DNA of 62,378 nucleotides, the filler included, from Ionaspis alba (Eukaryota), in assembly GCA_964255285.1 (NCBI GenBank). It is 22 parts of 22 records of this genome, joined end to end, with 100 filler letters (N's around TTAATTAATTAA, not from the genome) between each part and the next. Parts side by side here need not be neighbours in the genome. Positions count along the whole stretch, not along the records: positions 49,166 to 51,852 come from CAXUUL010001265.1; 21 more parts are not named here. One strand, 5' to 3'. Shown piece by piece: positions 48,209-49,980 of this stretch. How positions within the stretch are numbered: the first letter of the stretch is position 1; each line of letters starts with the position of its first letter. The notes below the pieces were generated by a model, which saw nothing but the letters and a program-made list of their open reading frames with translations, was not told the origin of the DNA and made no database searches. The position numbers were made by a program, and so were the translations under genes.

Positions 48209-49165
48209 GATTGCGGTTTGTGTTGGGAAGTCCTGGGTAAGGTTACTTGTAAGCGACAGTACGGATTTGAAGCTGTTAGAAGTAAGTTGTGGTCGCAAAT
48301 GCTGTGTAGAATGATCGCAATAGTACAGAAGGATGTTCTGTAGCTTTATGCGTGCCTGAAATCTAGGGCAATAGCGGGATGACGATTGGTGAACAGGGGC
48401 GAGAGCACCAACGACGAGTCATCCGTAGCCGATTGACTCATCAATTTTCACTGACACTCCTTTCTATTTTCGAGGAAAGAAGGTCTCACCACATAGAGAG
48501 CTATTGCCGCTATCATGCGTCACTACTTCGATTCAGGCCGTGTTACTCATTGGTGGCATCCAATTGTTGATTGACACAGTATTGAGCAGACCCGTGAGCT
48601 TATGTTTCAAGTGATTCTTTTCCTGATACGTTCCTCTGGAGACTGTCGTCGCATACCTGCATCTGCTCCACGTCCGCAGGCAGTCTGAACGCCGAGGTCT
48701 CACAGAATGATTGTGCAACTTTGAAAAATTGGAGATCGACCCGGTATGAAGTAGTAGAGGCTTCGGCGAGCAGGGGGTAAGCCTGACTGCACAAGAAAGC
48801 TATGGGTTTGATAACTCTTTTGGAGCTTCTCAATCCTTTGATGTAAAGGAAAATATTGGAATCCTCGACAAGAATCAAAAGAGCACATGAGTGGCACACC
48901 CAAAGTCGGCTCCAGACCCGTAGAAATAGCCAAGAAAATAGATATGGTTATAATTACAGTAGTGATTGATGAAGAACGTGGTAGTAAAGAGAGCCTTCGT
49001 TTCGACTCAATTTGACCTCGCTTACGTTCGAAAATAAACAATTCCTTCCATCTTCAACGTCGTCTNNNNNNNNNNNNNNNNNNNNNNNNNNNNNNNNNNN
49101 NNNNNNNNNTTAATTAATTAANNNNNNNNNNNNNNNNNNNNNNNNNNNNNNNNNNNNNNNNNNNN

Positions 49166-49980
49166 ATCTCAATCACAAATCTCTCGAACTCCTGGCCCCT
49201 AAGCTGCAGCCACCCCTCCAGCACGCTCCGCTCCACCTCCCGATAGCTATGGCCCACCAGTACGGCTATCCGCACTCGCATTAACTCTTCGAAGCCGCTG
49301 ACATCGGCCGTTAGATCGGCATAGAGGTCGTCGCTATCGAGGGTGGTCCAGAAAGCTTTGTAGTTCGCTTGTTCGAGGAGTGTGTTCAGCGTGCTGAGTT
49401 TCTGGACGGCTTCAGAGAGCGGGGCATCGCCTGCGGCAGGGAGAGCGGAGGATGCGGCTGAGGGGTGGAGGATGTGTGGAGGGAGGAGGTGAAGGCAGAG
49501 GGAGAAGTCGGGGCCAGGGAAGACGGTGAGGGCTTTGACGAGGATGTTGGTGGTTGTTTCATCGCGGGTGAGGTGGGGATTGAATTGGTAGCTGTGCGAT
49601 TGACACTTGGGTCAGTGTTGGTTTCCCTATGTTGCTTGAGGGTACAGCGGAGGATCTTGGGGGTGGATCAGATAGAGCTAATAAAATTGGCTTCAGGAAC
49701 GGGAGACTGATTCATGGTCTTTTCCGCTCGGTCAGGTAATAGGAAACGTTAAGTTCGATCATCATTGAGATGATGTTCCTGCTTTGAAGAATGTAAGGGA
49801 TAGAACCTACAGCTTCAGAAGTGCCAGATTTGCATAGCAGTCGTATGTGCGGTCCTCGCATTGTTGTGCAACATAGTCTTGGAAGACAGCGGTGGTTTCG
49901 GGATTATATCTATCGAGACCGTTCAAAATCGCATCGATGTGCTCCGGCCTATCCGGCGCATAGTCGAAAGCAATCCCCAT
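49166..49980 (-). CDS. Translation initiation factor 3 subunit K (eIF3k), 3'-truncated
   Basis: [20 protein letters not shown]...[19 protein letters not shown]...[20 protein letters not shown]; intron 49592-49810. Confidence 0.93.
49668..49765 (-). ncRNA. Intronic box C/D snoRNA (double guide) in eIF3k intron 1
   Basis: C box ATGATGA (49765-49759), D' CTGA (49735-49732), D CTGA (49671-49668). The D' guide ACGTTTCCTATTA is complementary to conserved LSU rRNA UAAUAGGGAACGU (one G-U pair). The D guide TATTAGCTCTA is complementary to conserved SSU rRNA UAGAGCUAAUA. Confidence 0.85.

Follow-up and report, generated by a model that had tools for sequence, protein, structure and literature searches.

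A predicted two-guide box C/D snoRNA in the first intron of fungal eIF3k genes, related to plant snoR18, Neurospora crassa CD32 and human U44

Box C/D snoRNAs follow the fifth-nucleotide rule, by which the target base facing position 5 upstream of the D or D' box becomes 2'-O-methylated. Those encoded in introns are released by exonucleolytic trimming of the spliced and debranched intron, an established pathway in which processing is optimal with one snoRNA per intron and about 60-100 nt between it and the 3' splice site downstream. The organisation of snoRNA genes in tandem clusters is typical of plants. To our knowledge, S. cerevisiae has no eIF3k, the host gene of the element described below.

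In Arabidopsis, the snoRNAs AtsnoR18a and AtsnoR18b, which by their guides correspond to plant Z102/R77 (Rfam family RF00359), have two targets, 25S Am2935 for the 5' guide and 18S Am162 for the 3' guide. Am2935, found in the context CACCCACCA[Am]UAGGGAACG, was mapped by RiboMethSeq, and according to a plant review it has been mapped only in Arabidopsis and has no human or yeast equivalent. Am162, given in the context UAAUUCUAG[Am]GCUAAUACG by the Arabidopsis RiboMethSeq study, is tabulated as human Am166, again with no yeast equivalent. In N. crassa, the snoRNA CD32 (EU780956; CD_32) carries a D guide that its authors pair 11/0 with 18S rRNA and assign to 18S-Am161, with Arabidopsis snoR18 and human U44 as its homologues. 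The N. crassa paper describes CD32 as intron-encoded on chromosome VII and names no host gene in the text and supplements consulted, and the main text of 'The fungal snoRNAome' (2018) treats Nc_CD_32 as a double-guide family traced only in Sordariales. Another N. crassa snoRNA, CD17, directs methylation of Am154, the equivalent of the human Am159 (U45) site, via a different guide.

Here we report the analysis of an intronic element found in a 62,378-base stretch of DNA (the window, meaning the whole stretch that was analysed). The element is very probably an intron-encoded two-guide box C/D snoRNA of about 100 nt, predicted to methylate one adenosine in 18S rRNA and one uridine in LSU rRNA. 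We read it as a snoRNA because its boxes follow the canonical order, both guides lie directly beside their boxes, and the arrangement is conserved at one and the same location, intron 1 of eIF3k. In the literature on eIF3k, snoR18, SNORD44 and Nc CD32, no report of a fungal eIF3k-hosted snoRNA was found.

The element and its host intron

The host gene was identified as eIF3k because exon 2 matches the Pfam family PF10075 (62.7 bits) and all five PDB sequences that it matches are eIF3 subunit K, aligned over chain residues 53/54 to 123/124. The joined translation of exons 1 and 2 of the window likewise matches the eIF3k exons of at least 29 metagenome loci. Among catalogued sequencing runs, a single one, stored as contigs and of unrecorded kind, contains this DNA, and no RNA run is listed for it. 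The coordinates of the gene, of its first intron and of the parts of the snoRNA are collected in Table 1. In the 3' part of the gene (49065-49165, minus strand), two N runs stand around TTAATTAATTAA, with stops in every frame; together they look like a linker between joined contigs, so that eIF3k is cut at this point and the sequence beyond it may come from another contig.

Table 1. Features of the eIF3k locus and of the intronic snoRNA in the window
Feature	Position	Strand	Remarks
eIF3k exon 1	49811..49980	(-)	ATG at 49980; 170 nt; ends within codon 57
eIF3k intron 1, snoRNA host	49592..49810	(-)	219 nt; GTAGGT donor, CAG acceptor
Box C/D snoRNA (predicted), extent of profile match	49665..49767	(-)	model R1, 65.3 bits; mature ends may differ
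C box AUGAUGA	49759..49765	(-)	read from sequence
D' guide ACGUUUCCUAUUA	49737..49749	(-)	positions 2-14 upstream of D'; 13 contiguous LSU pairs
D' box CUGA	49732..49735	(-)	read from sequence
Internal hairpin between D' and C'	49697..49729	(-)	9-nt loop CAUGAAUCA at 49716-49708, with conserved UGAAUC
Putative C' box UGAAGC	49690..49695	(-)	degenerate UGAUGA
D guide UAUUAGCUCUA	49673..49683	(-)	positions 2-12 upstream of D; same guide as in Nc CD32
D box CUGA	49668..49671	(-)	read from sequence
Branch-point motif CACTGAC	49611..49617	(-)	branch A 56 nt past the D box
eIF3k exon 2 onward	49166..49591	(-)	ended by an N run at ~49165

The preliminary description of this locus had proposed a double-guide box C/D snoRNA at 49668-49765, about 98 nt long, with a perfect C box and with D' and D boxes each preceded by an antisense element, and all of this was upheld by the boxes, by both guides, by the conservation and by the profile match reported below; the distance from the start of the C box to the end of the D box is exactly 98 nt, and each CUGA follows a guide complementary to rRNA. 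As in other RNAs of the class, a RUGAUGA C box is found toward the 5' end and a CUGA D box toward the 3' end, and the internal pair consists of a canonical D' box and a degenerate C' box. The antisense elements beside D and D' pair over at least 10 bp, that is, 11 bp with 18S and 13 bp with LSU, as judged against rRNA from other organisms and the Rfam consensus. The D guide UAUUAGCUCUA is followed by one unpaired U and then by CUGA, and the element that ends at the D' box is 15 nt long. In most copies of the family described below, in long and short forms alike, the D guide is preceded at a distance of a few nucleotides by a UGAAG-like motif, which we infer to be the C' box. The positions of UGAUGA that matter are U, G and A together with the second G, and the UGAAG-like motif keeps these.

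The window copy has no recognisable terminal stem, either in its sequence or in its minimum-free-energy fold; in some relatives (for example, L040, L110 and L004) 3-5 complementary bases can be seen by eye in the terminal flanks. The whole element folds no better than its shuffles (z = -0.45), as is expected for the box C/D class, and RNAalifold returned no consensus structure for the full alignment. Just upstream of the snoRNA, the motif AUCAUC is complementary, in inverted orientation, to GAUGAU of the C box (49758-49774, minus strand), and the minimum-free-energy fold of the window copy pairs the two, an arrangement that would hide the C box before the intron is processed.

The host intron contains one snoRNA, whose D box lies 76 nt before the 3' splice site, a spacing that fits the optimum for intronic box C/D snoRNA processing given above. 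The median of this distance in the family is also 76 nt (range 62-103; 28 of 30 copies resolved by pattern). From the D box to the branch motif there are 56 nt in the window and a median of 57 nt over the related loci, among which a single outlier of 15 nt is probably a mis-called motif. The position of the intron, after codon 57, is identical in the 25 related loci with both exons, and the length of the host intron ranges from 152 to 293 nt in 26 related loci.

Conservation in related eIF3k introns

We scanned a metagenome collection with a 16-mer that spans the D guide and D box, leaving the C box, the D' guide and the D' box outside the query. The scan found at least 113 loci. Many of the matches to the 16-mer must be due to chance, because a RUGAUGA motif within 130 nt upstream accompanies only 43 of the 115 matches listed. 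Of the 113 loci listed, 29 have eIF3k exons around the match, as found by tblastn with the N-terminus of the window eIF3k; these copies were ascertained through the D guide, and their number covers snoRNA-bearing introns only. Both exons were found at 25 of these 29 loci among the matches listed, and exon 2 alone at the other four, which lie at contig ends. The identity of exon 1 to that of the window varies from 48 to 95%, and the 16-mer match always falls inside the intron after codon 57. Every locus classed as fungal-type among the matches listed is one of these 29.

The window copy was aligned with 26 distinct copies (27 in total), leaving out the truncated L042 as well as L039 and L098, which duplicate L027 exactly or almost exactly. 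The C box has the canonical RUGAUGA form in 20 of the 27 aligned copies and differs from it by one letter in seven. The D' box is CUGA in 18 copies, CCGA in eight and AUGA in one, and the spacers around the D' guide are not alignable. The preliminary description had looked to orthologous eIF3k introns for conservation of the boxes and guides, and most of the 27 copies do keep them. A profile built from the 26 other eIF3k-intron copies, with the window excluded (model R1), matches the 62,378 bases once over both strands, at the snoRNA, with 65.3 bits and an E-value of 2.2e-19 under a rough calibration. Against the same model, loci that share only the 16-mer reach 15.5-18 bits and plant relatives 17.9-22.9 bits. 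Because the element is conserved in at least 29 independent eIF3k loci and is the single R1 match in the window, it is not a chance arrangement; both its R1 match and its location after codon 57 of eIF3k assign it to the fungal eIF3k-intron snoRNA family.

The D' guide keeps at least 13 contiguous pairs with LSU rRNA in 24 of the 27 copies, 21 of which have the identical 13-mer. In the D' guides of L091, L104 and L107 there are five substitutions in total, all of them C-to-U or U-to-C changes opposite a G, which swap a G-C for a G-U pair or the reverse and leave the pairing intact, and in five copies the duplex is extended to 14-15 pairs. We regard this pattern as evidence that the D' guide is probably under selection for pairing with LSU rRNA. 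In the remaining three copies the guide is gone or changed: it is lost in L050, interrupted by an insertion in L026 and replaced with a different element in L089. All three retain the C box, the D guide and the D box, and since they lost or changed the D' guide, it is dispensable in some lineages. Judged by eye, weak pairing of the replacement element of L089 with the LSU target stretch may be possible in the register used by plants.

A hairpin is found between D' and C' in 18 of the 27 copies. In its 9-nt loop (columns 20-28 of the alignment), UGAA is invariant and the following UC nearly so among the 18 hairpin-bearing copies. The 4-bp inner stem is paired in 93.1% of cells vs 77.5% in shuffles, three of its four pairs show compensatory changes on both sides, and the observed covariation score was reached by none of 500 shuffles; registers slid along the stem give 38-58% pairing. 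No extended complementarity of the UGAAUC loop was seen to the rRNA stretches at hand.

Several other loci found with the 16-mer differ from the eIF3k-intron copies. L060 and L061 (one contig, three copies), L032 and L077 hold snoRNA-like genes in tandem that share the D guide, whereas their D' element is another one, conserved among themselves; they score below every Rfam gathering threshold and are probably U44-type genes of another eukaryote. Four tandem RF00359 copies (57-83 bits) are found within 1.3 kb at L031:512-1793, and in L065 one RF00359 copy lies between two copies of RF00358 (snoZ101). The AT-rich contig L037 carries a short snoRNA at 1198-1266 that has the same D guide and an AUGAAUC motif and lacks the LSU guide; about 1 kb away, at 2215-2303, there is an snR60-type snoRNA (RF00309, 63.6 bits), a cluster context and not an eIF3k intron.

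Predicted rRNA targets of the two guides

Between the D guide and the 18S sequence published for Arabidopsis and N. crassa there are 11 Watson-Crick pairs, and position 5 of the guide (U at 49676) faces the adenosine numbered Am161 in N. crassa, Am162 in Arabidopsis and Am166 in human. It equals the D guide of Nc CD32 (Am161) letter for letter, with nearly the same unpaired lead-in, and not that of Nc CD17 (Am154). The selected base had been given in the preliminary description as the bracketed A of UAG[A]GCUAAUA, and the Arabidopsis context of Am162 agrees with that choice; the equation of this site with human Am159 has to be replaced, because the CD32, snoR18 and U44 assignments make it the equivalent of Am166, and the equivalent of Am159 is Nc Am154, the CD17 site. 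The SSU target is an already known methylation site, mapped in Arabidopsis and tabulated for human as Am166, and its methylation in the present organism is a prediction.

For LSU rRNA we used a eukaryotic LSU fragment (L114; RF02543, 129 bits) together with the Rfam LSU consensus and its structure line. This fragment belongs to a contig of the viral collection (L114:1-431) whose first ~225 nt are from the eukaryotic LSU 3' domain and are followed by AT-rich sequence of coding appearance. The contig may have arisen as a chimera or represent an element associated with rDNA.

With the LSU stretch UAAUAGGGAACGU, the D' guide forms 13 contiguous pairs, 12 of them Watson-Crick and one G-U. Opposite its position 5 (A at 49740) stands the U that corresponds to yeast U2935, which is the base that had been proposed before, the bracketed U of CUAA[U]AGGGAACGU just 3' of the A-loop hairpin. 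The yeast number follows from the tabulated numbering, in which Arabidopsis Um2922 and Am2947 correspond to yeast Um2921 and Am2946, because the fungal target is the next base 3' of Arabidopsis Am2935; the equivalent position in Chaetomium thermophilum, by offset, is 2894. According to the Rfam structure line, the target U is the last of five unpaired bases that link the A-loop hairpin to the next helix strand. It is absent from the predicted-site lists for N. crassa and A. fumigatus and from the Arabidopsis, human and yeast tables, and the comparative tables list neither of the two predicted sites for S. cerevisiae, in line with the preliminary description. The equivalent of LSU U2935 is a plausible new methylation site next to the A loop, as predicted from the position of the guide.

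Mechanism, alternative readings and relation to described snoRNAs

According to the proposed mechanism, the snoRNA would be transcribed within the eIF3k pre-mRNA, and the core box C/D proteins would bind to its C/D and C'/D' motifs. After splicing and debranching, exonucleases would trim the eIF3k intron and release the snoRNA. The D guide would then pair with 18S rRNA, allowing fibrillarin to 2'-O-methylate the adenosine equivalent to Am161/Am162/Am166, and pairing of the D' guide with LSU rRNA would direct methylation of the U equivalent to yeast U2935. For a more extended proposal we see about even chances, namely that fungi with this element carry a 2'-O-methylated LSU U, that the output of the guide is tied to eIF3k splicing, and that the hairpin is a new accessory element rather than a spacer.

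The LSU U is absent from the methylation lists for N. crassa, A. fumigatus, Arabidopsis, human and yeast, the sequence of the C' box is degenerate, in plants it is the adjacent A that is methylated, and the LSU guide is missing in three of the 27 copies, all of which would suit a real snoRNA that methylates through its D guide only, with the D' element pairing with pre-rRNA in a folding or chaperone role or directing methylation of the neighbouring A as in plants. We consider this unlikely, given that 26 of the 27 copies have a canonical D' box (CUGA or CCGA) whose spacing from the guide does not vary and always sets position 5 opposite the U, that the changes in the D' guide always preserve pairing, and that the UGAAG-like C' motif is kept in most long and short forms.

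The remaining two readings concern the identity of the element as a whole. The preliminary description had combined a U45-like guide for the equivalent of human Am159 with a new guide pairing specific to Pezizomycotina, and the paired 18S stretch does lie only 7 nt from the Am159-equivalent site, for which N. crassa has a snoRNA, CD17. However, the published pairings put the exact guide of the window on Nc Am161 and a different guide on Am154 (the U45A/C site), Arabidopsis Am162, which has the same context, is tabulated as human Am166, and the pair of guides also occurs in plants, where Z102/R77 (RF00359; AtsnoR18a/b) joins the same SSU guide to a guide for the same LSU stretch. Unless the numberings are wrong, the N. 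crassa and Arabidopsis assignments refute this combination, which we find very improbable. We give almost no credence to a conserved intronic element that serves eIF3k itself, in splicing control or autoregulation, and yields no stable snoRNA: the strictly conserved intron position and the covarying hairpin would be in keeping with such a role, but conservation falls precisely on the snoRNA boxes and the two rRNA-complementary guides, the N. crassa relative CD32 was cloned from cDNA as an 82-nt RNA, and plant relatives co-immunoprecipitate according to the snoRNA table of the Arabidopsis study.

The two-guide box C/D snoRNA, as the preferred reading, would add a well-supported and widely conserved snoRNA that lies below the curated threshold of every Rfam 15 family. 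If correct, it links the fungal family to plant Z102/R77 (snoR18) and human U44, predicts one ribose methylation beside the A loop in filamentous fungi, and points to a stable snoRNA host relationship with eIF3k; the general understanding of box C/D snoRNA function is unchanged by it.

The comparison of the whole window with Rfam, a check proposed in the preliminary description, gave no match at the curated thresholds and none at E-values up to 1; a sub-threshold similarity was seen to one family, RF00359 (snoZ102_R77), the only one that touches the window (24.3 bits against a gathering score of 40; E = 0.25 for a 501-base stretch), and its alignment to the window copy is correct for the 3' half only. 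None of the nine fungal copies tested reaches the gathering score of any Rfam family. Nine plant-type loci are found among the matches listed, and all five of those tested match RF00359 at 57-98 bits.

The human snoRNA SNORD44 (U44) is a single-guide snoRNA hosted in the non-coding GAS5, unlike the window element. Compared by site assignment alone, it has the same 18S site, and for the D guide of CD32 it is the homologue that the N. crassa paper lists from human. CD32 itself shares with the window element the D guide with its unpaired CCAA(A/U)UU lead-in, the 18S target and the intronic origin, and it was cloned from cDNA. In contrast to the window element, its D' guide is complementary to 18S rRNA (Um167) and not to LSU, and with 82 nt it lacks the UGAAUC hairpin. 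N. crassa CD17, a Pezizomycotina snoRNA related to human U45A/C, resembles our element in having two guides, one for 18S rRNA 7 nt upstream of the present site and one for LSU rRNA close to the A loop (26S-Gm2875), but both of its guides and both of its targets (Am154 and Gm2875) are different. The A. fumigatus orphan Afu-199, of ~80 nt, is placed in intron 1 of Afu7g02320, with its host listed as 'Unknown' elsewhere; it was considered as an orthologue of the eIF3k-intron snoRNA, and no link was established. The eIF3k-intron family may be catalogued under another name elsewhere in 'The fungal snoRNAome'.

The plant snoRNAs are similar to the window element in layout. RF00359 has the same order of C box, LSU guide, D' box, C' box, SSU guide and D box; its D guide and D box, UAUUAGCUCUAUCUGA, are identical to those of the window, with the same 16 bases in the consensus; and the LSU stretch to which its D' guide is complementary is also the one targeted in the window. 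In the plant copies, the 5' guide ...UUUCCCUAUUGG is followed by one base and then by a UUGA-like box, which places position 5 on Am2935. The UUGA-like D' box of plants is one nucleotide further from the guide and selects the A, whereas in fungi the next U would be selected. The two groups also differ in that plant genes occur in tandem clusters (four copies in L031) and the fungal copies in the eIF3k intron, and in the internal hairpin that is added in many fungal copies. What is fungus-specific is the eIF3k host and the predicted one-nucleotide shift in the register of the LSU guide. This comparison of sequences suggests that a two-guide ancestor with SSU and LSU targets may predate the split of plants and fungi, the LSU target having probably shifted by one nucleotide between the kingdoms, and the window element belongs, as a fungal branch, to an ancient family with U44, snoR18 (Z102/R77) and N. 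crassa CD32 among its members.
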